Shown piece after piece: positions 1-64,000 of a stretch of DNA of 64,000 nt (within the stretch, counting starts at the first letter, position 1; the number at the start of each line of letters is the position of its first letter). A program made the position numbers and the translations under genes. The notes beneath the pieces were generated by a model. The model was given only the letters and a program-made list of their open reading frames with translations, searched no databases and was not told where the DNA came from. Source of the DNA: an uncultured Bacilli bacterium (lineage in GTDB: Bacteria > Bacillota_I > Bacilli_A > RF39 > UBA660); assembly GCA_934096075.1 (NCBI GenBank), contig CAKOLN010000003.1:26184-90183 (forward strand). The letters are read 5' to 3'.

Positions 1-11
1 GTGAAAATTAA

Positions 12-338: not shown

Positions 339-480
339 GGTATCTTAAATGATACTTTTTATTTTGAAGAACTAAAAATCGCACTCTTGTGAATTAATTC
401 GTGAGTTAGATTTTTCCTTTTTTGTTTCTAAAAGTATTTATTTTTATGCTTACATATGGTATGATTGTTATGGTGGTAAT

Positions 481-876
481 ATGATTATTTCCAAAGGAAG
501 AGGATATGTATATGGTATAGAGTACCATATAGTATTTTGTACTAAATATCGTAAAAAAATAATAACCGATAGTGTAAAAGATTCACTTTTTCAAATAATT
601 ATATCATTATCTCAAGAAATGGATTTTAAAATAATAGAAATTAATACAGATTTAGACCATATTCACTTGTTAATTAGTTGTAAGCCTCAGCATTATATAC
701 CTACTATCGTAAAAAGATTAAAAGGTACAAGTGCAAGACTATTATTTAAATTATATCCAGAATTAAAAAAAGAATTATATGGTGGACATATGTGGAATCC
801 TTCTTATTTTGTTGCTACTGTTAGTGATACACTAGAAGATAATATTAAAGAATATATTTCTAATCAGGGGAAGTAG
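481..876 (+). CDS. tnpA: IS200/IS605 Y1 (HUH) transposase TnpA
   Basis: 131 aa; the HIVFCTKYRKK motif, the HUH-type HIHLLIS motif and a C-terminal catalytic Y region (WNPSYFVATVS) are typical of IS200-like TnpA. Confidence 0.85.
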   Translation: MIISKGRGYVYGIEYHIVFCTKYRKKIITDSVKDSLFQIIISLSQEMDFKIIEINTDLDHIHLLISCKPQHYIPTIVKRLKGTSARLLFKLYPELKKELYGGHMWNPSYFVATVSDTLEDNIKEYISNQGK

Positions 877-1968: not shown

Positions 1969-2130
1969 TTAATTATATATAGGGTAGGAACTATCCGAGT
2001 TTATGTCTCTTTACATTAATAATAGTATTATTAAATGGAGAAAATTCTAATAGTGATATTAGAAGCATGCGATATTAAATCGTGTGAGGTTCACAATAAA
2101 TGTAAACTAACAATATTTGTTAATTCAATG
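1850..2130 (+). ncRNA. Putative omegaRNA/reRNA of TnpB, derived from the tnpB 3' end plus the IS right end
   Basis: Inferred from established TnpB biology, in which the guide RNA scaffold overlaps the tnpB 3' end and the right end. A structured right-end region with hairpins is present. Not directly demonstrable from sequence alone. Confidence 0.3.
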
Positions 2131-2157
2131 AATTCAATTATGTGATACAATACTATT

Positions 2158-3384
2158 ATGAAGAAGTTTTTTAAAAGTTTAATAATATTTATTTTAATGT
2201 GCCCTTTAATAACAAAAGCATTTGAAATTGAAGGATTATATTCTAAAAATGTCTTAGTCTACAATTTAGATGAAGATAAGATTTTATATAATGTAAAAAG
2301 TGAAGATAAAATTAGCATAGCAAGTCTTACAAAAATAATGACTACAATAGTCGCTATAGAAAATATTGAAAATTTAGATGAAACCATAACTATAACTTCT
2401 AAAATGTTAGATGACATTCCATATGATGCATCAACCGCAGGATTAGAAGTTGGAGATAAGGTAACTTATAAAGATTTGTTATATGCAAGTCTTATACCTT
2501 CTGGAGCTGATGCAACTCAATCATTGGCAGTTTCGATCTCAGGTTCAGTATCTAAATTTGTAGAACTTATGAATAATAAAGCAAAAAGCTTAAATATGAA
2601 AAACACTCACTTCGTTAATACTACAGGACTAGATGCAGAAGGACATTATTCAACACTAGAAGACATACTTATTTTAATAAAATATGCCTTAAAAAATGAA
2701 ACATTTAAATCAGTATTTGAAACAAAATCATACACAACTACAAACAATATTAAACTTAAATCAACATTAGATTATTATAATAGAGATTTTAATTACAACA
2801 TATCTTATGTATTAGGATCAAAAACAGGTTTTACTGATGATGCAGGCCTATGCCTATTAACTTTATCAAATGTAGATGACACAAATATCATTACAATAAC
2901 AGCTAATGCACCCTATTCTTATGGTAACTCTAAAAACATGATGGACCTAAACACAATAAAAACATCATTAGATAAATCATTTGAAAAAGCAACACTCATA
3001 ACTGAAAACGAGCAACTAATAGTATTAAATACGAAATATGCTAAAGAAAAAGAAATAAAAATAACATCTCCTTCCGAAATAACTAAATATGTAGAAAAAC
3101 CTTTCAATAAAGATAAAATAAAAACTGAATATACTGGAGAAAAAATAATATCATACAAAACAGAAAAAGGTACTAAACTTGGAGAAATAAAAATAAGTTA
3201 TAATGATGAATTAGTAGATATAATTGAAGTTAAATTAGATAAAGATTTACACTTTAGTTTATGGGTATTTATTAAAGATAATATATTGCTAATCACTATA
3301 GTAATCATAGTATTTCTAATGCTTCTATTAATAATTAGAAAATCTAAAAAGAAAAGAAAGAGACTAAGAAAAATGAGACGATAA
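2158..3384 (+). CDS. D-alanyl-D-alanine carboxypeptidase (PBP5/DacB-type serine peptidase S11) with C-terminal TM anchor and K/R tail
   Basis: Signal peptide; SxxK motif (SLTKIM), SxN-like region and KTG motif (KTGFTDDAG); C-terminal hydrophobic segment followed by KKKRKRLRKMRR. Confidence 0.8.
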   Translation: MKKFFKSLIIFILMCPLITKAFEIEGLYSKNVLVYNLDEDKILYNVKSEDKISIASLTKIMTTIVAIENIENLDETITITSKMLDDIPYDASTAGLEVGDKVTYKDLLYASLIPSGADATQSLAVSISGSVSKFVELMNNKAKSLNMKNTHFVNTTGLDAEGHYSTLEDILILIKYALKNETFKSVFETKSYTTTNNIKLKSTLDYYNRDFNYNISYVLGSKTGFTDDAGLCLLTLSNVDDTNIITITANAPYSYGNSKNMMDLNTIKTSLDKSFEKATLITENEQLIVLNTKYAKEKEIKITSPSEITKYVEKPFNKDKIKTEYTGEKIISYKTEKGTKLGEIKISYNDELVDIIEVKLDKDLHFSLWVFIKDNILLITIVIIVFLMLLLIIRKSKKKRKRLRKMRR

Positions 3385-5040: not shown

Positions 5041-6390
5041 ATGGCAAGAAAAGAACCACAAAGTATTGAAGCAGAAATAAATGCTTTAGGATGTGCGTTC
5101 TTAAGTAAAAGTGCTTTAGACAAAGTATGTGAAGAATTAACCATGCCTATGTTTTACCTAGACGGTCATAAAAAAATATTTGAAGCATTATTAAATTTAA
5201 GAAGTACAGACACTGCAGTAGATATAACAACTGTAACTAATGAATTAGAAAGAACTAAATCACTTAGTTCAGTAGGCGGAATAGACTATTTAACTGAAAT
5301 AGTAAATTCAGTCGCAACACCTGCTAACTTAGAATACTACATAAAAATAATATTTGAAAAATACGTATTAAGATGTCTAATAGAAGAATCAACTAAAATA
5401 ATAGATGAATGCTATGATGAATCAGAAGATTTAAATTCTATAGTTGAAGATGCAGAAAAAAGAATTCTTGGAGTAAATAGTGATAGAATGATTAAAGATA
5501 TCAAACCTATTCAAGAAGTCTTAGTAAAAGCACAACAAGAAATAGAATCACTATCTAAAAATGGTGCAGACATAACAGGTGTACCTAGTGGATTTAAAGA
5601 CTTAGATAGAAGAACAGCTGGATTTCATGGCAATGAATTAATTATCTTAGCTGGTCGTCCAGGAATGGGTAAAAGTGCCCTTGCTATAAACATGGCAACA
5701 CATATGACAATAAATGCAAAAAAGTCAGTAGCCTTATTTAACCTAGAAATGGGAGCAACTCAAATAGTAAACAGAATGTTCTCATCCATTGGACAAATAG
5801 ATGGACAAAAACTAAGAACTGGTAGACTAGATCATATGGACTGGAAAAAATTTAACGAAGCATTAAGTCTACTAGCAGATACTAAGTTTTTTATAGATGA
5901 TACACCAGGAATAACAGTCGCAGAAATAAGAAGCAAATGTAGAAAATTAAAAAATAGTGATAAAGGTCTAGACTGTATAATAATAGACTACCTACAACTA
6001 ATAAGCAGTTCAAATAAGTACTCTGGACAAAGAACTAATGAGGTAAGTGAAATATCAAGAGACTTAAAAAAACTAGCAATGGAGTTAGAAGTGCCAGTAA
6101 TCGCCCTTGCACAACTATCTCGTGGTGTGGAACAAAGAGAAGACAAACGACCTTTAATGAGTGACTTAAAAGAAAGTGGCTCAATAGAACAAGATGCAGA
6201 TATTGTAATGTTCATTTATTGTGATGACTATTACAAATTCAAATCAAAAGAAAGACCTGCACTATCACCAACAGAACTAATAATTTCTAAACACAGAAGT
6301 GGTAGTACTGGTACAGTAGATTTAATTTTTGAAAGAGAACATGCTAATTTCAAAAATTATCTAAGAAGTGAGGAAAAAGAAAATGAATAA
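5041..6390 (+). CDS. dnaB: Replicative DNA helicase DnaB (DnaC in Bacillus nomenclature)
   Basis: 449 aa; Walker A GRPGMGKSA, RecA-like C-terminal domain, N-terminal DnaB domain; conserved synteny downstream of rplI. Confidence 0.92.
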   Translation: MARKEPQSIEAEINALGCAFLSKSALDKVCEELTMPMFYLDGHKKIFEALLNLRSTDTAVDITTVTNELERTKSLSSVGGIDYLTEIVNSVATPANLEYYIKIIFEKYVLRCLIEESTKIIDECYDESEDLNSIVEDAEKRILGVNSDRMIKDIKPIQEVLVKAQQEIESLSKNGADITGVPSGFKDLDRRTAGFHGNELIILAGRPGMGKSALAINMATHMTINAKKSVALFNLEMGATQIVNRMFSSIGQIDGQKLRTGRLDHMDWKKFNEALSLLADTKFFIDDTPGITVAEIRSKCRKLKNSDKGLDCIIIDYLQLISSSNKYSGQRTNEVSEISRDLKKLAMELEVPVIALAQLSRGVEQREDKRPLMSDLKESGSIEQDADIVMFIYCDDYYKFKSKERPALSPTELIISKHRSGSTGTVDLIFEREHANFKNYLRSEEKENE

Positions 6391-7846
6391 GAAAAGTATA
6401 TATTGGAGCTCAGTATTTGTAATCATACTAACTAGCCTAATATTTATACTTGGAACAGATAGAAAAAGTTATGATGAAAACCCTGAAACTGTTTATCAAG
6501 TATATCTAAACGGTCAAACAATAGGTGTCATCAAAAGTGAAGATGCCCTATATGACTTAATAGATAAAGAACAAAAAAATCTTAAAAAAGAATACAAAGT
6601 AAATAAAATATATGCTCCAATCGGACTAGAAGTAACTAAATTAGTAACATATGATAGTGAACTAGACGATGTAAAAGAAGTTTATAATAAAATAAAAGAT
6701 GAAGAACCATTTACTGTAAAAGGTTATGAAGTAACAATAACACATGATGAAAATAACATAGAAAAAATAAATGTACTAGATAAAAAGGACTTTGATACAG
6801 CAGTAGAAAATACAATAAAAGCTTTCGTAGATGAAACTGAATATGAAAAATACTTAAATGAAACTCAAGATGAAATAATAACAACAGGTTCAACTATAGA
6901 AAATATAAATATAAAAGAAAATATAACTATAAAAGAAAAATATCTAAGTACAGAAGACAAAATATATAGAGACGCAAATGAATTAAGTAGATACATGTTA
7001 TTTGGTACTGATGAAACTCAAGGAACACACATAGTAACCGCAGGAGAAACAATTAAACAAATTGCTGACGAATATGAACTATCAGTAAAAGAATTCTTAA
7101 TAGTTAACCCTGAAATAGTAAGTGAAAATGCATTATTATTTAACGGACAAGAAGTTAATGTAGGACTAGTAAAACCAATAATAAGTATTGTAGTAGAAAA
7201 TAATCTAGTTGAAGATAAAACAGTACCATATCAAAGTCAAACGAAATATGATAATAAATATGTGGTTGGTACAACATGGACAGAACAAACTGGACAAAAT
7301 GGTATCAGTAGAGTTGAATACTATACAGAAACAATAAATGGTGTAATAACTCAAGTAATACCATTAAGTACAGAAGTAATTAAACCAGTAGTAGATGAAG
7401 TAATAGTAAAAGGTGGTCTATCTATAAACTATGTAGGTGACACAGGTGCTTGGTATTGGCCAACAATAAGACCATATGTAATAACTTCATACTTTGGATG
7501 GAGAACAGACCCAATATCTGGAGAACATACATATCACCGTGGAATAGATATTTCCGGTACAGGTTATGGTTCACCAATATATGCTGCTCAATCAGGTACA
7601 ATCACTAGAATTGGATGGGCTGGAGACATGGGTAATTACATTTACATAGATCACGGAAAAGGATTCCAAACAATCTACATGCATTTAAGTGGTTTTGCAG
7701 ATGGAATGAGAAGTGGAGTTGCAGTAACTAAAGGAGAATTAATTGCATATATGGGAAGTACTGGATATTCAACTGGTACACACTTAGACTTCCGTATAAT
7801 GGCGAATGGTGTTTACATAGACCCACTAGGAGTAAAATATAACTAA
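6368..7846 (+). CDS. Membrane-anchored LysM plus M23 family metallopeptidase
   Basis: N-terminal TM; LysM-like segment (TAGETIKQIADEYELSVKEFLIVNPEI); M23 motifs HRGIDISG and HLDFRI. Confidence 0.8.
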   Translation: MRKKKMNKKSIYWSSVFVIILTSLIFILGTDRKSYDENPETVYQVYLNGQTIGVIKSEDALYDLIDKEQKNLKKEYKVNKIYAPIGLEVTKLVTYDSELDDVKEVYNKIKDEEPFTVKGYEVTITHDENNIEKINVLDKKDFDTAVENTIKAFVDETEYEKYLNETQDEIITTGSTIENINIKENITIKEKYLSTEDKIYRDANELSRYMLFGTDETQGTHIVTAGETIKQIADEYELSVKEFLIVNPEIVSENALLFNGQEVNVGLVKPIISIVVENNLVEDKTVPYQSQTKYDNKYVVGTTWTEQTGQNGISRVEYYTETINGVITQVIPLSTEVIKPVVDEVIVKGGLSINYVGDTGAWYWPTIRPYVITSYFGWRTDPISGEHTYHRGIDISGTGYGSPIYAAQSGTITRIGWAGDMGNYIYIDHGKGFQTIYMHLSGFADGMRSGVAVTKGELIAYMGSTGYSTGTHLDFRIMANGVYIDPLGVKYN

Positions 7847-13353: not shown

Positions 13354-13377
13354 TGTATAATTGAAGTGGAGGTAAAA

Positions 13378-14064
13378 ATGAACTTAATTGAAGTGAGAAA
13401 TGTATATAAACAATATAGAAATGGTGTAACAGCCTTATGTGATATAAATCTTTCAATACCTAAAGGAGACTTTGTTTTTGTCATCGGATCAACAGCATCA
13501 GGTAAAAGTACACTAATAAAATTACTATATAGACAAGAAAAGCCAACTAAAGGAGAAGTATATGTAGGTGGAATAAATGTAGCAAAACTAAGAAACAGAA
13601 AAGTTTACATACTTAGAAGAAAAATAGGTATAGTATTCCAAGACTATAAACTATTACCACAAATGACTGTATTTGAAAATGTTGCATTTGCATTAGAAAT
13701 ATATGGATTACCAGAAAAAGAAATAAGAAAAAAAGTAATGACAGCCATAGAAAAAGTAGGACTAAAAGAAAAATTTAGAAGTTATCCAGATGAATTATCA
13801 GGTGGAGAACAACAAAGAGTATCAATCGCAAGAGCAATAGTAAATAACCCTAAAATACTAATATGCGATGAACCTACAGGTAATCTAGATCCAGACACAT
13901 CAATGGGAATAATGGAAATAATAAATAAAATAAATGAAGAAGGAACAACAATAATAATGGCAACACATGATAAAGACATAGTTAACAAATACAAAAAAAG
14001 AGTAATAACTTTAGAAAAAGGTATCCTTATTGGAGATAAAGAAAAAGGAGGATACAGTAAATAA
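13378..14064 (+). CDS. ftsE: Cell-division ABC transporter ATP-binding protein FtsE
   Basis: P-loop GSTASGKST, ABC signature LSGGEQQRVSIARA, Walker B ILICDEPT. GGAGG RBS ahead of the ATG at 13378; the ORF-track start at 13366 is an upstream in-frame GTG. Confidence 0.9.
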   Translation: MNLIEVRNVYKQYRNGVTALCDINLSIPKGDFVFVIGSTASGKSTLIKLLYRQEKPTKGEVYVGGINVAKLRNRKVYILRRKIGIVFQDYKLLPQMTVFENVAFALEIYGLPEKEIRKKVMTAIEKVGLKEKFRSYPDELSGGEQQRVSIARAIVNNPKILICDEPTGNLDPDTSMGIMEIINKINEEGTTIIMATHDKDIVNKYKKRVITLEKGILIGDKEKGGYSK

Positions 14065-14963
14065 TGAAAGCATTTAGAATATTAAGAAATAATTTAAAAG
14101 ATGGATTTAAAAGTGTATTTAGAAACTTTTCTCTAAGCCTAGCAAGTATAAGTTGTATAACAATAACTTTAATCTTAGTAGCCGTTTCAATAATACTATC
14201 AGAAAACATAAAAAACTTTACTGATGACATAGAAAAAGATGTAACAATAGTAGTATATGTTGATAAAGATGCTACTGAAGATGACAGAAAAGCAATTGAA
14301 CTTAAAATAGACTTCTTAGACAACATAGAAAGTGTAACATTCATGTCAAAAGAAGACATTAGAAAAGACATGGCAAGTGATTCTGATGGTTTAGGTACAA
14401 TATTAAATGAATATGATGAGACAAATAATCCATTATTGGATGAATATCTAGTAAAAGTAAAAGATACTGAAAAAATAGGTGTAACAGCCAAAAAAATTGA
14501 AGGAATAGACAAAGTAAACACAGTTAAATATGGAGAAGGAATGGTAGAAGAATTAGTAAAAATCTTCGACATAGTCAAGAAAATAACACTAGGTATAGTT
14601 GCCGGACTTATAATAGTAACTGCATTCTTAATAAGTAACACAATAAAAATAACTATATCTAATAGAAAAAGACAAATAGAAATAATGAGATTAGTTGGAG
14701 CATCAAACTCCTACATAAAATTACCTTTCTTCTTTGAAGGTATAATACTTGGATTCTTAGGAAGTATACTACCTATACTAATAAGTTGTTATGGTTACAT
14801 AATTCTTTATGATAAACTAGGTGGAATTCTATTTACAGAAGTAATAAGTTTAGTAAGCCCAGAAAAAATATTATTAAACTTATCAATAATATTAGTATCT
14901 ATTGGTGTATTAGTAGGTGCCTTTGGTTCATATAAAGCTGTAAGGAGGTACTTAAAAATATAA
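14064..14963 (+). CDS. ftsX: Cell-division permease FtsX
   Basis: 299 aa; TM1, large extracellular loop, three C-terminal TMs; overlaps the ftsE stop. Confidence 0.88.
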   Translation: MKAFRILRNNLKDGFKSVFRNFSLSLASISCITITLILVAVSIILSENIKNFTDDIEKDVTIVVYVDKDATEDDRKAIELKIDFLDNIESVTFMSKEDIRKDMASDSDGLGTILNEYDETNNPLLDEYLVKVKDTEKIGVTAKKIEGIDKVNTVKYGEGMVEELVKIFDIVKKITLGIVAGLIIVTAFLISNTIKITISNRKRQIEIMRLVGASNSYIKLPFFFEGIILGFLGSILPILISCYGYIILYDKLGGILFTEVISLVSPEKILLNLSIILVSIGVLVGAFGSYKAVRRYLKI

Positions 14964-16153
14964 TGAAGAAAAAAGTAGTATTAATTATATTATTACTAGG
15001 AATATTCTTCTCATTGCCAACTAAAAGTAATGCTACAACATTAGGAGACTTATATGATGAATTGTATGAACTAAGACAAGAAAAAGAAGAACAAGATAAT
15101 CAAAAACAAATGTCAGAAGAAGAATACAGAAAAACTAGTAATGAAATAATGACAACTGAACAAAACATAGAAAACTTGAATAAAAGAATACAAGAAGCAA
15201 CGGAAAAAATCGCGGAATTAGAAACTGAAATAAAAAAGAAAGAAGAAGAAACTAAAAAAATACTTGTATTTTTACAAGTAACAAGTGGTGAAAAATCATA
15301 CTTAGAGTACATCTTTAAAGCAAAAACATTTACTGATTTTATTCACAGAGTTTCAGTAGTAGAACAATTAAGTAAATATAATTCTAACTTAATAAAAGAA
15401 ATGAATGATTTAATAAAACAAAATAATGAATTAAAAGAACAACTTAAGAATGATATTAAAACTCAAGAATCTGAAAGAGAAAAATTAAAAGTTAAACTAT
15501 CTGAAATAGGAAGTAGAATAGATGAATTAGATGATGAAGCAATATCAATAGATGCTAAAATTAGTACTCAAGAAAGTCTAATAGCGTTCTACGAAGATAT
15601 GGGGTGTACTGACAAAAGTGATAACCTAGCAACTTGTGGAGACACTGTACCTACTGCAACAGGTTTCTTAAGACCAGTTAACAAAGGAATAATAATGAGT
15701 TGGTTTGGTTATAGATCAGATCCGTTTAGTGGAAGTTTATCATACCATAGTGGTCTAGATATATCAGACTCTTCTCCTGCAGAAGGAAAAGATGTTTACC
15801 CAGTCGCACCAGGAATAGTTAGTACTATTCAAAGATGGAGTTGTGGAGGAAATGTTATATTTATATATCACAACATAAATGGTAAAAACTATACATCAGT
15901 TTATATGCATTTATTAGATACTGCAGACACACAAGTCGGCGATGTAGTAACAACAAATCAAGTAATTGCACATATGGGTGGATACTCGACAAGTACTTCT
16001 CATGGTGGTTATGACTATTGTACAACAGGCGCACACCTTCACTTATCTATATGTGATGGCCATGTAACTGCTGGAGCATATCGTTCATCATTAATTGATC
16101 CAACATCAGTAATATACTTCCCAGATGGTTGGTTCTATGGAAGAGATTGGTAA
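14963..16153 (+). CDS. Coiled-coil M23 peptidase (EnvC/PcsB-like FtsEX-associated murein hydrolase)
   Basis: 396 aa; signal peptide, long coiled-coil region (EEL/K-rich), C-terminal M23 domain (HSGLDISD, HLHLSI); immediately follows ftsX. Confidence 0.8.
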   Translation: MKKKVVLIILLLGIFFSLPTKSNATTLGDLYDELYELRQEKEEQDNQKQMSEEEYRKTSNEIMTTEQNIENLNKRIQEATEKIAELETEIKKKEEETKKILVFLQVTSGEKSYLEYIFKAKTFTDFIHRVSVVEQLSKYNSNLIKEMNDLIKQNNELKEQLKNDIKTQESEREKLKVKLSEIGSRIDELDDEAISIDAKISTQESLIAFYEDMGCTDKSDNLATCGDTVPTATGFLRPVNKGIIMSWFGYRSDPFSGSLSYHSGLDISDSSPAEGKDVYPVAPGIVSTIQRWSCGGNVIFIYHNINGKNYTSVYMHLLDTADTQVGDVVTTNQVIAHMGGYSTSTSHGGYDYCTTGAHLHLSICDGHVTAGAYRSSLIDPTSVIYFPDGWFYGRDW

Positions 16154-24767: not shown

Positions 24768-25532
24768 ATGAAAAAGAAAATAATGATTGTGGATGATAAC
24801 AAGGCCTTAGTAGGTATGTTAAAAGAGTTTATAAATAATACTAATGACTTAACATTATTAAAAGAAGCATATAATGGTGGAGAAGCATGGGAATATATAA
24901 AAGATAATTATAGTGAAATAGATGCTTTAATATTGGACTTAGTAATGCCAGAAAAAGATGGAATGTATTTATTAGACAAATTAAAAGAAAACAAAATAAA
25001 TTTAAAAATATTAGTATTAACAAGTTACAACGAACAAGAAACAATAAGAAATGTAAGTGAATATGGAGTAAAATATTTCATGCTAAAACCATTTGACTTA
25101 CAAGAATTACATAAAAGAATACAAGATATAACAAATCCTAAAGCAAAAGAAGCAAAAATAATAAATGTAGAAAAGAATAATACTCAAGCAATGATAACTA
25201 AACTCTTACATGAACTAGGAATACCATCACATATTAAAGGCTATCAATACATAAGAGAAGCCATCAATATGGTATATGATGATCCTAAACTTATAGGAGG
25301 CATAACTAAAGAATTATATCCAGAGATAAGCACTAAATATGGTCAATCAGTAACTCGAGTAGAAAGAGCAATTAGACACGCTATTGAAGTGAGTTGGAAT
25401 CGTGGAGATTGGGACTTAATGGAAGAAATCTTTGGACACTCAGTTGATATAGATCGAGCAAAACCTACAAACTCAGAATTTATAGTAACAATCGCAGACA
25501 AACTAAGATTAGATATGCTAAAAATACATTAA
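24768..25532 (+). CDS. spo0A: Sporulation master regulator Spo0A (REC plus Spo0A_C DNA-binding domain)
   Basis: 254 aa; receiver domain (DDN...D, LDLVMP); C-terminal Spo0A signature HIKGYQYIREAI...ISTKYGQSVTRVERAIRHAIEVSWNRGD...EFIVTIADKL. Confidence 0.9.
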   Translation: MKKKIMIVDDNKALVGMLKEFINNTNDLTLLKEAYNGGEAWEYIKDNYSEIDALILDLVMPEKDGMYLLDKLKENKINLKILVLTSYNEQETIRNVSEYGVKYFMLKPFDLQELHKRIQDITNPKAKEAKIINVEKNNTQAMITKLLHELGIPSHIKGYQYIREAINMVYDDPKLIGGITKELYPEISTKYGQSVTRVERAIRHAIEVSWNRGDWDLMEEIFGHSVDIDRAKPTNSEFIVTIADKLRLDMLKIH

Positions 25533-50967: not shown

Positions 50968-52541
<1,574 letters not shown>

Positions 52542-52822
52542 ATGGAGTAATAACTAGTAGAAAAAAGAACCGTAAATATCATTCGGGGTTTGCTTAATTG
52601 AAACATGATATATTATAAACTAACATAAAACACATTTTACTCGGCTTTGAGAGATTATTTCTCTCAATATTGTATTTAATTATACGATAATTGTTCTTTG
52701 AAAACTTGATAATGTGATGTTCATATTGTTCTTACGAGCAACAATATGAATGCTTAATTTTTTGGTAATTTATTTAAAGATAAATATTAAGAAATAGCTC
52801 ATCAAATTAGGATATATAAAGT

Positions 52823-55740
<2,918 letters not shown>

Positions 55741-55805
55741 CATTTAATTTGATGTTTTTAATCACATTATCTTGTTTTGAGAGAACAATTATGGTATAAT
55801 CATTT

Positions 55806-55912
55806 TATTGGTGACGATAGCAAAGTGGATACACCTGTTCCCATCTCGAACACAGAAGTTAAGCACTTTAACGGCGAAGATAGTGTAAGCGAAAATAGCA
55901 AGTTGCCAATAT
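55806..55912 (+). rRNA. rrf: 5S ribosomal RNA
   Basis: GTTCCCATCTCGAACACAGAAGTTAAGC core; terminal helix UAUUGG/CCAAUA. The ends are approximate. Confidence 0.85.
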
Positions 55913-55930
55913 TTTTTTTGCAATAAAATA

Positions 55931-55960
55931 CTTGAAATGTTTTAACAAATATTGTATAAT
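55931..55960 (+). promoter_or_regulatory. Promoter for tRNA-His (TTGAAA-17-TATAAT)
   Basis: cttgaaatgttttaacaaatattgtataatc, immediately upstream of the tRNA. Confidence 0.6.
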
Positions 55961-55971
55961 CATATCTACAT

Positions 55972-56048
55972 GGCGGTATTGGTGAAGTGGTTAACACACC
56001 AGATTGTGGCTCTGGCATGCAAGGGTTCGACTCCCTTATACCGCCCCA
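55972..56048 (+). tRNA. tRNA-His (GUG) with encoded G-1 and CCA
   Basis: Acceptor stem GGCGGUA/UACCGCC with an extra 5' G pairing the C73 discriminator; anticodon loop UUGUGGC; T-loop GGTTCGACTCC; 3' CCA encoded. A terminator hairpin follows at 56055-56085. Confidence 0.9.
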
Positions 56049-56127
56049 TTAAAAAATAACACTTGATAAAGTGTTTTTTTATTTACTACAAATAACAAAT
56101 ATGCTAATATTAAAGTGGTGATTATTA

Positions 56128-57099
56128 ATGATGAAAAATAAAATTTGTGTTGTTCTAGGAACAATAATTACAATATTAGTTATTACTCTAATAATAGATT
56201 TAATAAGTATTAAAATGACATCTATGCCTTTAATTATATTGAAGGAAGAAGACGGTGTGGATAAAGTATATTATGGAATATTGTATAATACCTATGATTG
56301 TTCTTTAAATAAAAAAGTAACAATAAAACTAAAAATGACTAAATATTCTTGTCCTGTTAAAACATCAAATACTTACATAATAGAAGATGAATCTAAACTT
56401 ATAAATAATTTTACTTGTAATGAAGTACTAGATGAAATATACAAAGATAATGATTATTCTTATAATTTAACATGTGAAAAAGCAAGTTATATACAAGTAA
56501 AATATAGTGATGGACTTAAAATGAACATAAAAGATGCTCTAAAAAATGGCAAGATAAATATAGAAGATTTAAAAACATATAACATTGAATTTGTTAAGGT
56601 ACCACTAAATAAAAATGAACAGTATCTGCCAACTGAACCAATTCTTCCTAGTGAGCCGACAACACCTGAAACACCAGTAATACCAATAACACCGGATATT
56701 CCTAATTCATCAACTGGAAACAATGAACCTGACAGTGCATCCACACCAACAATACCAACGAATCCAACTGAACCTAGTACACCTTCATCAGATAAAAATG
56801 ATACAGTAATTGTTAATCCTGGAATAAAAAAAGATAACTTAAAAAATCCTACTACTTCCGCCAAATCAATTGAAGTTATAGATAAATCAACAGGAAAATA
56901 TTGTGCAGAAGCAATTGAATATTTTTATCAAAATTATTATTTTAGTTGTATTAAAAGTAATTATGTATATGTAAAAATAAATGGTAAAGAATATTTACTA
57001 AAAGATGCATTAAAAAATGGTATCGTTACAATGAAAGAGTTAGAAGATGCAGGATACAAATTTAGAAAAAATAACAATATGAACTTTGCAGACAGATAA
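56128..57099 (+). CDS. Membrane-anchored protein with two homologous domains separated by a Pro/Thr-rich linker
   Basis: 323 aa; N-terminal TM; linker PTEPILPSEPTTPETPVIPITPDIP...PTIPTNPTEPSTPSS; repeated motif (Y.VK...L.KDALKNG....EL...Y.F) in both halves. Confidence 0.55.
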   Translation: MMKNKICVVLGTIITILVITLIIDLISIKMTSMPLIILKEEDGVDKVYYGILYNTYDCSLNKKVTIKLKMTKYSCPVKTSNTYIIEDESKLINNFTCNEVLDEIYKDNDYSYNLTCEKASYIQVKYSDGLKMNIKDALKNGKINIEDLKTYNIEFVKVPLNKNEQYLPTEPILPSEPTTPETPVIPITPDIPNSSTGNNEPDSASTPTIPTNPTEPSTPSSDKNDTVIVNPGIKKDNLKNPTTSAKSIEVIDKSTGKYCAEAIEYFYQNYYFSCIKSNYVYVKINGKEYLLKDALKNGIVTMKELEDAGYKFRKNNNMNFADR

Positions 57100-57167
57100 A
57101 ATACTAGAAATAGTATTTTTTTAAATTGATGAAGCAGACATGTCATGTTATACTTAAATCAAAGTAG

Positions 57168-57593
57168 GTGATGATAATTGATACTAAAGTAAAATACCTG
57201 GTAGAAAGAAAACATATCGATCCTTCAAAGATAGTTGTTATTTCTTATACAAACAAAGCAACTGATGAATTAGAAGACAGAATAAAATATAAAAAGTGTC
57301 CTAATGCTTACATAGAAGCAATGAGCGTTCATAAATCAAAAGGATTAGGAGCAGACCAAGTTATTATTTTAAATGTTACTAATAAAAATTTTCCTGAAGA
57401 AGCAAGAAAAACATTTTGGATTAAAAATCTTTTTGATGATCATGAATTTGTAGAGGAATTTCCGGATGCAGAGGAAAGAAGAGTATTTTATGTAGCATTA
57501 ACTAGAACAAAAAAAGATGTATATTTATTAACACCAAGGGAAAAATCTAAAAAATCTCCGTTTGTTAGGGAATTGCTGGAAAGTGAAATATAA
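57168..57593 (+). pseudogene. UvrD/PcrA-like helicase remnant (internally deleted, N-terminally truncated)
   Basis: Contains a motif-Ia-like YTNKATDELEDRI fused almost directly to the C-terminal motifs SVHKSKGLGADQVII and VFYVALTRTKKDVYL. The Walker A region and ~400 central residues are absent; no proper upstream start. Confidence 0.5.
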
Positions 57594-57764
57594 ATAAAGA
57601 ATATCGATTTAACACCACAAAAATCACTATTAACAAGATATTCACATTAACTTAAAAAATTGGATTTTTTAAGAATATATAATTACAAAGGGTTATTAAA
57701 TATAACTCTTTTTTAGTCCATTCCATTTATTAACAAAGTCATAAAATATATTGGAGGTACAAAA

Positions 57765-58097
57765 ATGTTAAATATGACCTTATTAAAAAATGTCTTAATA
57801 ATAGCAATGGCTAGTAGTATAATATCTACTGCATTAACTCAACAATTAAAAGAATCATTAAAATGCAAAGAAAAAGGTAAATTACCAATAAAATGTTTTT
57901 TAATATCTATGATAATAGGAACAATGTTTAGTCTTACTTTTTCAGATATAAATATAAAATATGCTTTATGGGTAGGACTTATAAGTTTTATAGGTGCGGA
58001 TGCAATCTACAAAGCATTTGAAGACAAAATATTTAAAAGTTTTAGTTCGATAGAAAATGCGATTTATATAGAAAGGAAGGATAAAAAAGATGTTTAG
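57765..58097 (+). CDS. Putative holin (3-TM small membrane protein with charged C-terminus)
   Basis: 110 aa; three predicted TMs; C-terminal ERKDKKDV; overlaps the start of the downstream M23 peptidase by 8 nt. Confidence 0.5.
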   Translation: MLNMTLLKNVLIIAMASSIISTALTQQLKESLKCKEKGKLPIKCFLISMIIGTMFSLTFSDINIKYALWVGLISFIGADAIYKAFEDKIFKSFSSIENAIYIERKDKKDV

Positions 58098-58740
58098 ATA
58101 TCCAGTTAATTATATTGCTATCACTCAATATTTTAAAAGTGGAGTCCACAATGGTTTGGATTTGGGATGGAATTCTAATTATTATGGAAAAGAACAGCCT
58201 ATATATGCGTCAGCTTCAGGAACTATTATTGAATTAAAAAATGATTATACAACTACAGATTCAACCGGTTCTTCATACGGAAATTATGTAAAAATAAAGC
58301 ATGATAATAATCTATTCACACTTTATGCACATTTAAAAACAAATAGTATTCCTTATAAAATTGGTGATACAGTTAAACAAGGAACTCAAATAGGAATAAT
58401 GGGAAATACAGGAAGAAGTAATGGAAATCACTTGCACTTTGAAATATTTGAAGGAACAACAAAAGTAAATCCATTAAATTTAACTTATGTTTACAGCGAT
58501 CAGATAATTTCAAAAAATTTAGATGCAACGGAAGGATTACTATATTACATTCCTGAAACACCGAAAGCTGATAAGGAATTACAAGAACTCCAAGACAAAA
58601 TAAATTTGCAATTAAAAGAAATTGAATCACTAAAAAACGAAATAAATGAACTAAAACAAAATAAATTCGAATATACAATAACCAAAACAAGTTTATATAA
58701 AATAAATCTATATGAAGGTGAAATATTAATAGTAAAATAA
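58090..58740 (+). CDS. M23 peptidase without signal peptide plus C-terminal coiled coil (endolysin-like)
   Basis: 216 aa; M23 motifs HNGLDLGW and GNHLHFEIFEG; coiled coil KELQELQDKINLQLKEIESLKNEINELKQNK; no signal peptide. Confidence 0.7.
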   Translation: MFRYPVNYIAITQYFKSGVHNGLDLGWNSNYYGKEQPIYASASGTIIELKNDYTTTDSTGSSYGNYVKIKHDNNLFTLYAHLKTNSIPYKIGDTVKQGTQIGIMGNTGRSNGNHLHFEIFEGTTKVNPLNLTYVYSDQIISKNLDATEGLLYYIPETPKADKELQELQDKINLQLKEIESLKNEINELKQNKFEYTITKTSLYKINLYEGEILIVK

Positions 58741-58817
58741 AAATTAAATTTCTTTCATCCCTTTAAAAAAACAAAATATCCTGGTATAATTATTACATAA
58801 TAGAAAAGGGGAATAAA

Positions 58818-59621
58818 ATGAAAAGAATTATTATTTATATACTTTTAATTATATCATTCACATCTCTTGGTATAATAGGATTAAAAAACCAGCCAATAGA
58901 TTTACCAGAAAAAGAATTATTAAATAAAGAGCTATATTTATTTAATACAAAAACAGGTAATTATGAAATATTAAAAATAACAAGTGATAAATTTGAATAT
59001 ACTGGAGAATCTTTAGATTTAAATAATTGCAAAAAATATGAATATAACTCTGGAACAGGTATACTTAAATTAGATTGTAATAAAGCAATTAGAATTGTTG
59101 GCAAGGTGGGAAATTCATATGTTTTCAAAGTTAATAACAATAATGTTTTTCTCTACTTTACAAAATCTGACAGTTATAATGGTGAATTTCAAAGAACATT
59201 TAATACTACTAAGGAAAATTATGTAACTGAAGGTATAACAAAAATTACGCCATTATCATTAGATTATAATACATTAATTCAAACTTTATCTTCTAATGAA
59301 ATAAAATACATATATATAAAATCAAATGACTGCTCTGAAATTTGTGATATATATAATAATATTTATTCTTCTAGTAATATGGGAAATAAGTATTATTTAG
59401 AACTAAATACACTAACAGTCGAAAATTTAATTAATTTAGAAAATATTAATAAACCATTTAGAGATTTACTGACTGGAACAATAAAATATCCTTTAATAAT
59501 AGAAGTTCAAAATAACAATATTATAAGAAATTTTGAAGTGAAAGTTGATGGATTAGATTTTAGTAATTACATAAATTTAGATGAAGAAAAGGAGATATCA
59601 AATGAACAAAATAAGCAATAA
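58818..59621 (+). CDS. Hypothetical secreted/lipoprotein-like protein
   Basis: 267 aa; N-terminal hydrophobic signal; extended -10 promoter upstream (ctggtataat). Confidence 0.45.
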   Translation: MKRIIIYILLIISFTSLGIIGLKNQPIDLPEKELLNKELYLFNTKTGNYEILKITSDKFEYTGESLDLNNCKKYEYNSGTGILKLDCNKAIRIVGKVGNSYVFKVNNNNVFLYFTKSDSYNGEFQRTFNTTKENYVTEGITKITPLSLDYNTLIQTLSSNEIKYIYIKSNDCSEICDIYNNIYSSSNMGNKYYLELNTLTVENLINLENINKPFRDLLTGTIKYPLIIEVQNNNIIRNFEVKVDGLDFSNYINLDEEKEISNEQNKQ

Positions 59622-61932
59622 AGAACTAGTAATAATAGATAAATATTTTAGATTAGCAAATTATCTTTCAGTTGGACAACTATACTTATTAGATAATCCA
59701 TTGCTAAGAAGAAAACTTGAACTTAAAGATATAAAACCACATGTTGTTGGACACTGGGGAACCGCTCCTGGACAAAACTTCATATACTTGCATTTAAATA
59801 GAATGATAAAAAAATATAACTTGAATATGATCTACATATCTGGACCAGGTCATGGTGGAGAAGCCATGATTGCGAACACTTTTATAGAAGGTTCTTATAC
59901 AAAAATATATAATAATATAACAAATGATGAAGAAGGATTAAAAAAATTGTTTAAACAATTCTCTTTTCCAGGTGGTGTATCTTCACATGTTGCACCTGAG
60001 ACACCAGGAAGTATTAACGAAGGCGGAGAACTTGGTTATAGTTTAAGTCATGCTTATGGAGCAGTATTAGATAATCCAACATTAATCGCCGCCTGTGTAA
60101 TAGGAGATGGAGAAGCCGAAACAGGTCCACTTCAAGCAAGTTGGCAACTTAACAAAATAATAAATCCAAAAAAAGATGGAATAGTTTTGCCTATCTTACA
60201 TTTAAATGGTTATAAAATTGCAAACCCAACAATATTATCTAGAATACCTGAAGATGAATTAATTTCATACTTCAAAGGACTAGGTTACAAACCATATATA
60301 GTTGAAGGTAATGATGAAAAGAAAATGCACATAAAAATGGCTTCTACTATGGAAGAAGTAATAACTTATATAAATAAAATAAAAAAAGCATCACAAAATA
60401 CAGACTTCAGACCATTCTATCCAATAATAATCTTAAGAACACCAAAAGGATGGACTGGACCAAAAGAAGTAGAGGGTTCATTTAAATCACATCAAATCCC
60501 TTTAATAGTAGATGCCGAACATCCAGATAATGTTAGTTTATTAGAAAAATGGATGAAAAAATATAAACCAGAAGAATTATTTAATGAAGATGGAAGTATA
60601 AAAGAAGAAATAACAAACTATGCTCCACCACTAGATAAATGCATGGGACTAAATCCTAATACAAATGGTGGCTTATTACTAAAAGAATTAAAAACACCAA
60701 ATCTAAAAAAATATGGAGTAAAAATAAAAACACCAGGTTGCATAGAAAAAGAAGACATGAGAGAACTTGGTAAATACATTAGAGATTTAATAAAATTAAA
60801 TGAAAAAAATAATAACTTTAGAATATTTGGACCAGATGAAGCCTTATCAAATAGACTTAATTATGTATTTGATGTAACTAATAAAAAATGGGGTACTAAA
60901 ATAATTAAACAAGATGAATTATTAAACAGAAATGGTATGGTTATAGATGGAGTGCTATCTGAACATGCCTGTGAAGGAATGCTAGAAGGCTACTTATTAA
61001 CAGGAAGGCATGGTTTCTTTCATTCATATGAAGCATTTATAAGAATAGTTGATTCAATGACAAGCCAACATGCAAAATGGTTAAAAGTTACAAGTGAATT
61101 ACCATGGAGAAAACCAATAAGTTCATTAAACTACATACTTACAAGTCATGTATGGCAACAAGATCATAATGGTTATACACATCAAAATCCCGGATTTATC
61201 AACCACATATTAACAAAAAAAGCTGAAATATCAAGAATATACTTACCATTTGACTCAAACTCACTAATATCAACATTTGACCATGTAATAAAAACAAAAA
61301 ATTACATAAATGTTATCATCGCATCAAAACATATGAGACCACAATGGTTAAACATGGAAGATGCAATTCAACATTGTGAAAAAGGTTTAGACATTTGGGA
61401 GTGGGCAAGTACAAATAGTGGTAAAAATCCGGATATAGTCCTAGCATGCGCAGGAGACACACCAACTTTAGAAACATTGGCCGCAACAACAATACTAAAA
61501 GAACACTTGCCTAGCCTTAAAATAAGAGTCGTAAATGTTGTAGACCTAATGAAACTTGAATCAAATAAAAAACATCCACACGGATTAACAGATTCTGAGT
61601 ATAACAAAATATTTACCACAAACAAACCAATCATATTCACATTCCATGGTTATCCAAATGTAATACATGAATTAACTTATAATCGCACAAACAGAGAAAT
61701 TCATGTAAGAGGTTACAATGAAGAAGGTACAATAACAACACCATTCGACATGAGAGTTCAAAATAAAATAGATAGATACCACATAGTATTAGATGTCTTA
61801 AAATATGTACCAGGTTTATCTAAAGAAAAAGAACTTAAAAATTACTGTAATAAAATGTTAGAAAAACATAACTCATACATTAGAGAATATGGAAAAGATA
61901 TTGAAGAGGTATCAAATTGGAAATGGAAATAA
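59602..61932 (+). CDS. xfp: Xylulose-5-phosphate/fructose-6-phosphate phosphoketolase
   Basis: ANYLSVGQLYLLDNPLL, GHWGTAPGQNFIYLHLNR, ISGPGHGG motifs; ~776 aa from the ATG at 59602 after AAAAGGAG. Confidence 0.92.
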   Translation: MNKISNKELVIIDKYFRLANYLSVGQLYLLDNPLLRRKLELKDIKPHVVGHWGTAPGQNFIYLHLNRMIKKYNLNMIYISGPGHGGEAMIANTFIEGSYTKIYNNITNDEEGLKKLFKQFSFPGGVSSHVAPETPGSINEGGELGYSLSHAYGAVLDNPTLIAACVIGDGEAETGPLQASWQLNKIINPKKDGIVLPILHLNGYKIANPTILSRIPEDELISYFKGLGYKPYIVEGNDEKKMHIKMASTMEEVITYINKIKKASQNTDFRPFYPIIILRTPKGWTGPKEVEGSFKSHQIPLIVDAEHPDNVSLLEKWMKKYKPEELFNEDGSIKEEITNYAPPLDKCMGLNPNTNGGLLLKELKTPNLKKYGVKIKTPGCIEKEDMRELGKYIRDLIKLNEKNNNFRIFGPDEALSNRLNYVFDVTNKKWGTKIIKQDELLNRNGMVIDGVLSEHACEGMLEGYLLTGRHGFFHSYEAFIRIVDSMTSQHAKWLKVTSELPWRKPISSLNYILTSHVWQQDHNGYTHQNPGFINHILTKKAEISRIYLPFDSNSLISTFDHVIKTKNYINVIIASKHMRPQWLNMEDAIQHCEKGLDIWEWASTNSGKNPDIVLACAGDTPTLETLAATTILKEHLPSLKIRVVNVVDLMKLESNKKHPHGLTDSEYNKIFTTNKPIIFTFHGYPNVIHELTYNRTNREIHVRGYNEEGTITTPFDMRVQNKIDRYHIVLDVLKYVPGLSKEKELKNYCNKMLEKHNSYIREYGKDIEEVSNWKWK

Positions 61933-62144
61933 ACTATTTAATTAAACAAAAAATAAAGAGTAACATCTAATATACTAGGAATACTAAAAATTCCTAATAT
62001 AAAATTTAATTAAAAATTTGTATTTCCTCCTAAAAATCGTTTAATAGACTATACTGGTCTCAAATATATAAATTAATAAAAGCTACTTAACAAAAGTAGT
62101 TTTTTTTACACCAAGTTTATGATAAAATTATAAAGAGGATAGTT

Positions 62145-62972
62145 ATGAAAAAGGGTATATTAATTATTATAATATTAAATTTAAATATAATGATGTTAAA
62201 TGCATCAACTGGACTTCTAAAAGATGGAAGTATTTTTAAATGTGATGGTGAATACTATGGAACCCATGGAAAAGATGTACACTATCATAAAGCAGAAAAA
62301 TCAACTAATGGTAACTACAAAGCAACTGGAGAATCATTAGGTACAAATTGGGTATGTGACGGTGAAATTGTAGACATTGACGACACAATAGTTTTGGAAA
62401 AACAAGAAGTAACATTTAATAGATGTGTAGATGGAGACACTGCAGTATTTAATGTAAATAATAAAGAAGAAAAATTTAGATTTCTAGCAGTAGATACACC
62501 AGAAACAAAACATCCTACAAAAGGAGTTCAAGCATATGGTAAAGAAGCAAGTGATTATACATGTGACAAACTTAAAAATGCAACTAAAATAGAAGTAGAA
62601 TATGAAGAAAATAAAACAGATAAATATAACAGATATTTAGGATGGATATGGATAGATGGAAAACTTTTACAAGAAGAATTAATATCTAATGGCCTAGCAG
62701 AAGTATCTTACATATATGGTAACTACAAATATACCAATCACTTATGCAATGTACAAACTACTGCAATAAAAAATAACCTAGGAATATGGACTACTAACAG
62801 AGAAGAAGGATTTTGTTCAAGCATTAGAAAACTCAACATAGAAAGAACAACTACAACCACAAGTGAAGATGAAACAAAAACAGAAGAAAGTCTAAATACT
62901 CAAGATTTACTATATTCATTACCAATACTATTTTTATTATTTATAGTAAAAAAACTAGGAGGTAAAAAATGA
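62145..62972 (+). CDS. nuc: Secreted thermonuclease (staphylococcal-nuclease/SNase-like) with C-terminal hydrophobic anchor
   Basis: Signal peptide; SNase core (FRFLAVDTPETKHP, YGKEASDY, NRYLGWIWIDG, GLAEVSYIY); C-terminal LPILFLLFIVKKLGGKK. Confidence 0.8.
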   Translation: MKKGILIIIILNLNIMMLNASTGLLKDGSIFKCDGEYYGTHGKDVHYHKAEKSTNGNYKATGESLGTNWVCDGEIVDIDDTIVLEKQEVTFNRCVDGDTAVFNVNNKEEKFRFLAVDTPETKHPTKGVQAYGKEASDYTCDKLKNATKIEVEYEENKTDKYNRYLGWIWIDGKLLQEELISNGLAEVSYIYGNYKYTNHLCNVQTTAIKNNLGIWTTNREEGFCSSIRKLNIERTTTTTSEDETKTEESLNTQDLLYSLPILFLLFIVKKLGGKK

Positions 62973-63247
62973 TAATTAATGGAAAAGAAGTTAGTATTGA
63001 TGATTTAGTAGAAACAATAGACATTAATAACAACATACCCAAAACAAGAAAAAACGGCTTAGTTTTAAGAGATTCACAAATTGAAACATTAAAAAAATAT
63101 AACATAGAATATGAAAACTTTACTAGTTTATCAAGCCTAATATTTGAAATAGAAGAAATCTTAACATATGAAACTGACTTAGATGATTTAGAAGAATTGA
63201 GTGCAGAACTATCAGAACAAAACTACTATAATAACACAAACAAGTAA
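62969..63247 (+). CDS. Small acidic protein translationally coupled to the nuclease gene (ATGA overlap)
   Basis: 92 aa; D/E-rich C-terminal half (TYETDLDDLEELSAELSEQ). Confidence 0.45.
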   Translation: MIINGKEVSIDDLVETIDINNNIPKTRKNGLVLRDSQIETLKKYNIEYENFTSLSSLIFEIEEILTYETDLDDLEELSAELSEQNYYNNTNK

Positions 63248-63256
63248 GGAGTAGCT

Positions 63257-64000
63257 ATGAAAAAAGAATATTTAATAAAGAAAGAAGAAGTAATATCTAA
63301 TTTAGAAAGTAACATAAATGGTTTATCAACAAAAGAAGCAAATAAAAGATTAAACAAATATGGTAAAAATGTACTACCTAAAAAGAAACAAAAAACTTTT
63401 ATACAAGTATTTCTAAGTGAATTTAAAAATCCTATAGTTTATATATTATTTATATCTATGATACTATCATTCATAATAGGTGAATATATTGATGGTTTAT
63501 TTATACTTTTTGTTGTATTAATAGATGCAATATTAGGTTCAATACAAGAATATAGAAGTAACAAAAATGCAGAAGCCCTAGCAAGTCTTATTAAAATAGA
63601 AGCATTAGTTATAAGAGATGGAATAGAATATATGGTGCCAAGTGAAGACTTAGTAATAGGCGACATTGTATTATTAGAATCAGGCACAAGAGTACCTGCA
63701 GATATAAGATTAATTGAAACACAAAATTTATCAATAGATGAATCAATGTTAACAGGAGAATCTATTCCAAGAGAAAAAAAATCAAGCACATTAAAAAAAG
63801 AAGAAACTCTAAGTGAAAGAATCAACATGGCTTATTTAGGAACATCCGTAATGAGGGGAAGAGGAAAAGGAATAGTCACAGGAACAGGTACTAATACTGA
63901 AATAGGAGTACTAGCAAAAGAAGTATTAGAAAAAGAAGATACAATAACTCCACTTCAAATAAGAATGACAAAATTTACTAAAACTCTAGGTATGCTAACA
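63257..64000 (+). CDS. P-type cation-transporting ATPase (Ca2+/Mg2+-type), 5' part; continues beyond the window
   Basis: AAGGAG RBS; N-terminal Cation_ATPase_N (LSTKEANKRLNKYGKNVLP), TM1-2, actuator-domain motif LTGES. No stop codon before the window end. Confidence 0.8.
   Translation, partial: MKKEYLIKKEEVISNLESNINGLSTKEANKRLNKYGKNVLPKKKQKTFIQVFLSEFKNPIVYILFISMILSFIIGEYIDGLFILFVVLIDAILGSIQEYRSNKNAEALASLIKIEALVIRDGIEYMVPSEDLVIGDIVLLESGTRVPADIRLIETQNLSIDESMLTGESIPREKKSSTLKKEETLSERINMAYLGTSVMRGRGKGIVTGTGTNTEIGVLAKEVLEKEDTITPLQIRMTKFTKTLGMLT

Follow-up and report, generated by a model that had tools for sequence, protein, structure and literature searches.

Does a holin-like gene followed by a lysin-like gene in the vicinity of a transfer RNA (tRNA) gene indicate the scar of a prophage, or can such a pair belong to the host? 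This question is raised by the 64,000 nucleotides (nt) of contig CAKOLN010000003.1 analysed here (the window), which represent a population of human-gut metagenome-assembled genomes (Hadza and other cohorts) of uncultured Bacilli with 27% GC. Downstream of tRNA-His, the window carries a helicase remnant, an open reading frame (ORF) for a small membrane protein, termed tm3, and an ORF for a peptidase of the M23 family. An earlier note on this DNA had seen in these three ORFs either a decaying prophage or a domesticated lysis module. The latter proved to be the best explanation, as at least 15 species keep the pair of tm3 and M23 genes undisrupted, in the same gene order and under purifying selection. 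Homology to phage cassettes, intact catalytic residues, co-divergence with the downstream phosphoketolase (XFP) gene and an autonomous regulatory region add to this, and the pair (57765-58740) is probably a cassette of phage origin that was domesticated and is inherited vertically as a module for programmed lysis. A holin and a lysin gene beside a tRNA gene need not mark a prophage scar.

Homology of the gene pair to phage lysis cassettes

The ORF listing contains the three ORFs described before, with lengths of 141, 110 and 216 amino acids (aa). Hydropathy and sequence also bore out the description of a 110-aa protein with three transmembrane (TM) segments and a charged tail, whose gene overlaps by 8 nt (ATGTTTAG, read from the window sequence) with that of an M23 protein lacking a signal peptide. 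The three TM segments are assigned from hydropathy only (peaks at about residues 5-25, 43-60 and 66-82), and the C-terminal tail of 28 aa comprises 13 charged residues (7 K/R and 6 D/E). Small size, TM segments and a hydrophilic, charged C-terminus, the features looked for in a holin, are all found in tm3.

We sampled 34 homologues of tm3, which are 47-82% identical to the window protein. PHROG 1299, annotated as 'holin', was matched by 30 of them (best E = 2.7e-10) and the Pfam family Hol118 (PF06946) by 20 (best E = 8.7e-6). It is through these close homologues that the window protein is assigned to the holins, because its own score is too low. Judged from these matches, membership of tm3 in a small holin family appears likely. 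This family comprises 188 cluster representatives among 1.84 billion proteins (E <= 1e-3); in GenBank phages no relative was detectable with tm3 as query. A dual-start (antiholin) motif was considered as well and dropped, since Met1 and Met4 are unconserved in the orthologues.

Relatives with 55-60% identity to tm3 are encoded in evident phages or prophages (L086-L095), where they follow genes for tape-measure, tail or fibre proteins and precede the endolysin gene. The latter encodes a CHAP lysin in L086-L089, a 246-aa lysin with M23 domain and coiled coil in L090-L092, and a 337-aa M23 lysin in L093-L095, a podovirus-like contig with a P22-type portal. The relatives closest to the cassette belong to prophages of siphovirus-like type from this same group of hosts.

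The 216-aa protein matches the Pfam family Peptidase_M23 (PF01551) with E = 1.6e-25 and 89.6 bits (cut-off 28.7). Its catalytic residues, i.e. HxxxD (H20, D24), H81 and HxH (H114, H116), align with the TagE/Csd motifs and are invariant in 21 homologues. In the AlphaFold model (predicted local distance difference test score, pLDDT, 86.7) beta strands begin at residue 2 and the M23 fold extends from there to about residue 150. It is followed by a long helix (162-190), in agreement with the coiled coil noticed earlier, and by a tail of lower confidence. Foldseek matched the protein to ShyA, Csd1/2, SpoIIQ, DipM, LytM, EnpA and the phage 2638A endolysin, with a probability of 1.00 for ShyA, Csd1, LytM and EnpA; EnvC was a further match among the M23/LytM proteins. 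No hydrophobic stretch was found anywhere in the protein (maximum Kyte-Doolittle value over 15 residues 0.73), and there is neither a Sec signal nor a signal anchor, with a maximum hydropathy of 0.33 across the first 44 aa and the catalytic domain starting at residue 2. These are the features of a holin-dependent endolysin. The gene does not lie in a phage genome; phage relatives exist elsewhere. Because the enzyme lacks an export signal and has a holin homologue as partner, it would reach the wall only via membrane lesions.

The helix is followed by a conserved tail (F-x-Y-x-V-x-K-T-S-L-Y-K-I-x-L-Y-E-G-E-x-L-x-I-K). Coiled coil and tail recur together in two prophage lysins, one of the M23 type (L090) and one of the CHAP type (L023/L096), were weakly detected on lysins of IMG/VR, and can be regarded as a swappable endolysin module. 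The fold search was uninformative as to this module, and GenBank phages searched with the M23 protein returned only generic M23-domain matches. The reading as holin plus endolysin, already put forward in the earlier note, is well supported, because tm3 homologues match holin models and sit in phage cassettes and the C-terminal module of the endolysin-like M23 protein is found on prophage lysins.

In L023/L096, a prophage end (1-3010) lies 4 kb upstream of the chromosomal tm3-M23 pair. It carries Gp10_C fibre-like ORFs, a tm3 paralogue and the CHAP lysin with the coiled-coil and tail module, and represents a possible route for module exchange.

Conservation and inheritance of the pair

Loci were gathered by searching with the M23 protein, taking one genome per species. 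About 16 species, Clostridium sp. CAG:628 among them, proved to have the order tm3-M23-(0-5 kb)-p267-XFP, p267 being a signal-anchored protein (loci L007-L023). Identity to the window in these syntenic species amounts to 71-99% for XFP, 48-98% for M23 and 62-100% for tm3. Neither ORF is disrupted in any of the 15 loci examined, and the overlap between the two measures 4 or 8 nt throughout. Where synonymous substitutions (dS) are unsaturated, the ratio of nonsynonymous to synonymous substitutions (dN/dS) is 0.03-0.15 for tm3 and 0.05-0.2 for M23; it stays under about 0.4 across all pairs examined. The trio L018, L020 and L022 exhibits values of 0.03-0.06 for tm3 and 0.12-0.18 for M23, with a dS equal to that of XFP. 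Distances of both proteins correlate with those of XFP (Mantel test, r = 0.94 for M23 and r = 0.81 for tm3, p <= 2e-4), and neighbour joining places the XFP-linked tm3 copies in a single clade apart from those of phages. Since related species inherited the pair and kept it intact, we regard it as a working pair of host genes and not as part of a dying prophage.

The tRNA-His gene lies upstream of tm3 in seven loci (L007, L012, L018, L020, L021, L022 and L027), at a distance of about 100 nt in L018, L020, L022 and L027. These seven loci span the deepest split of the clade, so the adjacency to tRNA-His must be old and not the result of a fresh integration. A second lineage has the pair at another fixed locus (tm3-M23-frr-nusB-xseA-spoIVB, 4 species), and in a third it follows tRNA-His and adjoins large surface proteins. 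The earlier note had set its reading against a pair of conserved core genes with fixed synteny and no association with phages: the synteny is indeed fixed across the clade, whereas the families are clearly phage-associated. A metagenome scan anchored on XFP yielded one locus with 99% identity (L103), which contains the cassette, and otherwise only distant XFPs (64-68%) accompanied by neither the cassette nor p267.

In a distant clade, whose XFP is 64% identical (L047, L050, L053-L055), we observed a tRNA array, a 195-aa protein with two TM segments and a signal-less M23 protein of 230 aa with a different, possibly SH3b-like C-terminus. XFP follows 4-6 kb downstream (about 7200-8700 in L047 and L053). 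No tm3 holin is present in these loci. As this clade has a signal-less M23 protein near tRNAs and XFP without tm3, such an arrangement may predate the pairing with tm3.

Regulatory region

In most chromosomal loci a terminator hairpin precedes tm3, leaving about 50 nt up to the gene. Most of them, in both clades, also have a (C/A)ATAnnnTA box, separated from the ribosome-binding site by 4-6 nt. In the window the site reads CCATTCC-N15-CATAAAATA, and no other site of this kind occurs in the 64 kb. The phage copies of tm3 are embedded in late operons and have neither the terminator nor the box. The hairpin in front of the cassette is predicted to insulate it from upstream transcription, and the combination of terminator and box before the chromosomal copies points to an autonomous control by the host. 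As the conserved box corresponds to CATAnnnTA, a mother-cell sigma factor is possible. The -35 region fits imperfectly, and an AT-rich -10 box of sigma-A is equally possible.

The same CATAnnnTA box was observed before the ribosome-binding site in L070 and L071 (tm3 at 994 and 6657, respectively), labelled as uncultured Bacilli and uncultured 'Mycoplasma sp.'. In both, tm3 is accompanied by an M23 lysin of about 300 aa near tRNA-Gly.

Origin and function of the pair

If the pair is a domesticated lysis module, the cassette would have been taken over by the host, as a pair of its own genes, in an ancestral member of this low-GC group of uncultured gut Bacilli. A dedicated promoter between terminator and ribosome-binding site would give rise to one bicistronic, translationally coupled mRNA. 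The 110-aa holin would build up in the membrane and form lesions at a threshold; the signal-less zinc endopeptidase would cross these from the cytoplasm and cleave the peptide cross-links of the peptidoglycan. Lysis or local permeability might then ensue, either in the producing cell or in a specialised subset of cells, e.g. sporulating mother cells.

Several points weigh against this explanation. Pore formation, lytic activity and the purpose of lysis are what we infer from the features described above. The window tm3 itself stays below the threshold of all holin models (best phrog_2073, E = 0.06), and in Pfam it has no match at E <= 1, PF06946 included. Gathering the loci with M23 biases the estimate of presence and absence across the clade, and the XFP-anchored scan indicates a restriction to the clade but says nothing on the frequency within it. 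Among close relatives, the M23-p267 block has been swapped for divergent alleles: the dS of M23 is 1.0 compared to 0.08 for XFP, and in the same near-identical genomes M23 is 81% and p267 60-71% identical at the aa level. Such divergent alleles indicate recombinational exchange rather than decay, and the inheritance is consequently not strictly clonal. The cassette might also have been fixed by chance beside the tRNA, which fits poorly with a dN/dS < 0.2 over saturated dS.

Decay of a prophage integrated at the tRNA-His hotspot, leaving behind a helicase fragment, a holin and a lysin, would be suggested by the tRNA-His gene as upstream neighbour, by the phage origin of the holin and lysin families and by a helicase which is visibly decaying and differs between strains. 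The att-like repeats of the tRNA-His 3' end that the earlier note proposed to look for were not found: the window contains no second copy of this end with up to 3 mismatches allowed, and there are no meaningful direct repeats in 55900-64000. Neither at the locus (50-64 kb of the window) nor at the syntenic loci was an integrase, a structural gene or another gene of a phage detected, and the GC content is the same as in the flanks. Furthermore, the other syntenic species all carry the pair in intact form and none of them has the helicase, and strong purifying selection together with co-divergence with XFP is at odds with decay. Monophyly and matching dS speak against independent recent insertions, too. 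A recent prophage remnant is therefore hardly credible. That the pair is no lysis device at all and that the small membrane protein anchors or regulates M23 for wall remodelling in division, shape or engulfment is very unlikely. M23/LytM proteins do act frequently in division or sporulation, as the matches to SpoIIQ, DipM, EnvC and ShyA recall, and the organism has Spo0A. The enzyme, however, has no export signal and a holin homologue as its partner, the organism already possesses FtsEX-PcsB-like and G5-M23 enzymes, and prophage lysins have the same overall architecture, down to the C-terminal module.

The two main alternatives retain the opening of the membrane and assign it another purpose. 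Gene transfer agents can have unlinked lysis genes, and the pair could accordingly serve to release, by lysis, a phage-like particle (a gene transfer agent, a tailocin or a PBSX-like element) whose structural genes are located elsewhere in the genome. Lysis by gene transfer agents is mentioned in the literature (PMC13236601), and the siphovirus-like relatives of the cassette in this host group would suit such an origin. As the pair occupies at least two different fixed positions among the lineages, with no structural genes within 10 kb of any of them, we regard this as quite unlikely. Somewhat less so is a holin-dependent protein export resembling type 10 secretion, in which a local opening frees signal-less cargo without general lysis or with few cells lysing. 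The use of domesticated holin/endolysin pairs for secretion is documented (PMC9527704, PMC6200909, PMC10847048), and the window pair, being chromosomal, conserved and autonomously regulated, is the combination of chromosomal holin and hydrolase by which such systems are recognised. Signal-less cargo is not linked to it, however: the neighbouring p323 (a 323-aa ORF), p267 and the thermonuclease (SNase) all bear an N-terminal hydrophobic signal or anchor, and the neighbours vary by lineage (XFP-linked, frr-linked or beside surface proteins). Export thus remains improbable.

Within the reading as a domesticated lysis module, a more specific version can be formulated, in which the anciently captured cassette serves as a programmed autolysin, e.g. 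for mother-cell lysis and spore release, in spore-forming gut Bacilli with reduced genomes. The promoter would possibly be read by sigma-E or sigma-K, and the C-terminal module of M23 and p267 would diversify along with cell-wall variation. In this detail the proposal is speculative and we give it a small chance only.

Some properties of the host bear on the lysis module. FtsE-FtsX, followed by a PcsB-like protein with coiled coil and M23 domain, are encoded at 13366-16153, a protein with G5 and M23 domains at 6368-7846 and Spo0A at 24768-25532; at least three M23 enzymes are thus present within the 64-kb window. Spo0A together with the FtsEX-PcsB-like M23 and G5-M23 proteins indicates that the organism is walled and possibly spore-forming. 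For related uncultured orders of Bacilli, an ancestral loss of most lyt/cwl hydrolases has been inferred (PMC10868615), which would make a captured phage lysin plausible as a replacement autolysin.

Comparison with known systems

The pair belongs to a known kind, the phage lysis cassette kept by a host; here it is intact, long conserved and found in uncultured gut commensals. Such cassettes are known from a few pathogens, where they release toxin or chitinase, and from gene transfer agents. For gut commensals, the cassette is a concrete candidate for lysis or the release of contents, e.g. spores, DNA or public goods. A small holin family and a new C-terminal endolysin module specific to these bacteria and their phages emerge from our analysis as well.

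Hol118 of the Listeria phage A118 resembles tm3 in its size (about 100 aa), its three hydrophobic segments and its charged C-terminus. Its gene, too, directly precedes that of a signal-less endolysin and is coupled to it, and the tm3 homologues match the models of the A118 holin family (PF06946; PHROG 1299). Unlike the A118 genes, those of the window pair reside on the chromosome behind a promoter-like region of their own, are vertically inherited and include an M23 partner with a coiled-coil tail. EnpA of an Enterococcus prophage (PDB 6SMK) and the M23 domain of the staphylococcal phage 2638A endolysin (PDB 6YJ1) share the fold and the zinc site with the window M23 protein; they are holin-dependent, as is presumed for the latter, and none of the three has a signal peptide. 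The window protein, in contrast, is encoded by a non-phage gene and lacks SH3b, LysM or any other recognised wall-binding domain, having a coiled coil and a 25-aa tail instead.

Besides TcdE/TcdL, ChiW/ChiX of Serratia is an example of holin-dependent export. Like the window pair, TcdE/TcdL of C. difficile and the systems of Serratia, Salmonella and Yersinia (type 10 secretion) consist of a phage-derived holin and hydrolase that the host employs for itself and whose genes lie in its chromosome apart from any prophage (PMC6200909, PMC9527704, PMC10847048). The window pair differs from them in having no linked signal-less cargo or dedicated regulator, in its Gram-positive-type commensal host and in its location beside a ribosomal RNA (rRNA) operon. 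TcdL, moreover, is a fragment, whereas the window endolysin is full-length with an intact active site.

Endospore formers are known to keep lysis cassettes in their chromosomes, as is the case in B. subtilis for xhlAB-xlyA of PBSX, bhlAB-blyA of SPbeta and the holin-cwlA genes of the skin element. These lie inside recognisable defective prophages, while the window pair stands alone among housekeeping genes and is conserved across species. The secreted M23 bacteriolysins lysostaphin, zoocin A and enterolysin A are M23 endopeptidases acting on peptidoglycan cross-links as well, and the variation of alleles between strains at the window locus would fit an antagonism locus. They carry Sec signal peptides, targeting domains and immunity genes, however, whereas the window protein is signal-less and presumably holin-dependent.

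Organisation of the locus and neighbouring genes

The features of the locus are compiled in Table 1. According to the earlier note, the three ORFs lie immediately downstream of tRNA-His; in fact the 323-aa ORF and two terminator-like hairpins intervene. Each unit of the locus closes with an AT-rich hairpin and U-run (three hairpins by folding). A standard terminator scan of the locus returned none of them, because the stems are AT-rich. The flanks in the window are made up of housekeeping genes, namely the rRNA operon, ribosomal proteins, XFP, SNase, a P-type ATPase and BipA.

Table 1. Features of the tm3-M23 locus and its surroundings (positions in the window)
Feature	Position	Strand	Remarks
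16S-23S-5S rRNA operon	50969-55911		Upstream of the cluster
tRNA-His(GTG)	55973..56048	+	Closes the 16S-23S-5S operon; ancestral neighbour of the cassette on its 5' side; ARAGORN and Rfam
Terminator-like hairpin and U-run after tRNA-His	56058..56075	+	Fold energy -8 kcal/mol, z = -3.8
323-aa ORF (p323), N-terminal membrane anchor, Pro/Thr-rich	56128..57099	+	No Pfam match; variable insert outside the cassette
UvrD/PcrA/helicase IV-like remnant, 141 aa	57168..57593	+	Motif Ia joined to motifs V-VI; Walker A and B missing
Terminator-like hairpin and U-run 5' of the cassette	57687..57711	+	Fold energy -8.3 kcal/mol, z = -3.5
Promoter-like region CCATTCC-N15-CATAAAATA	57718..57748	+	CATAAAATA at 57740-57748
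GGAGG ribosome-binding site of tm3	57753-57757		4 nt 3' of CATAAAATA
tm3, class-I-like holin homologue, 110 aa	57765..58097	+	3 hydrophobic segments and charged C-terminal tail
M23 endolysin-like protein, 216 aa, whole ORF	58090-58740	+	Peptidase_M23 Pfam match
M23 catalytic domain, aa 1-150	58090..58539	+	No signal peptide; invariant H20, D24, H81, H114, H116
C-terminal module of the M23 protein	58573..58737	+	Coiled-coil helix aa 162-190 and conserved tail
p267, signal-anchored protein	58818..59621	+	Constant downstream neighbour; overlaps start of phosphoketolase (XFP) gene
Thermonuclease (SNase), staphylococcal type, NucI-like	62145-62972		E = 4.8e-34

The gene for p267, which has no family match, is always located directly 5' of the XFP gene and overlaps it. 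Between genomes whose XFP is 98-99% identical, p267 shows only 60-71% identity. It is a hypervariable surface protein, whose variable tract reaches across to the M23 gene and includes the 3' end of the latter. The SNase has an N-terminal signal sequence and a hydrophobic/basic anchor at the C-terminus; a conserved 92-aa ORF follows, overlapping the SNase stop codon. For the 323-aa ORF a homologue exists in L021 (52% identity), and it is missing from the close strain L007.

The description of the helicase ORF as internally deleted was correct: residues 4-40 align with PcrA 41-77 (motif Ia, just past the Walker A loop) and residues 50-122 with PcrA 560-619 (motifs V-VI). Pfam accordingly detected positions 29-79 of UvrD-helicase and 285-346 of UvrD_C, and the NCBIfam model for helicase IV was matched with E = 5.9e-26. 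From these alignments and matches it follows that this is a true internally deleted gene without Walker A and B; the alternative of a contiguous 2A domain is ruled out by the PcrA alignment. The remnant is confined to the species of the window, none of the other syntenic species having it, and the close genome L007 bears a different helicase remnant with only the 3' half in common. The helicase is thus a decaying, strain-variable gene unlinked to tm3-M23. Together with the 323-aa ORF it represents a later, strain-variable insertion between tRNA-His and the cassette, without a role in the latter. With the PADLOC defence models, the remnant gave generic GajB and DRT-helicase matches, and no match was obtained for tm3 or M23.

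In the database, the 120 relatives that match the remnant best are without exception short proteins (87-247 aa) with UvrD_C only; some of these are encoded on contigs of 118-139 kb. The forms of 182 aa have a common N-terminus (M-x-N-P-x-Q-I-K-K-E-L). In P0291, one of the relatives P0241-P0360, Walker A has been joined to the C-terminus by an independent fusion. These short UvrD_C proteins either form a true stand-alone family of mini-proteins or have arisen as one helicase IV/GajB-like family decayed repeatedly.

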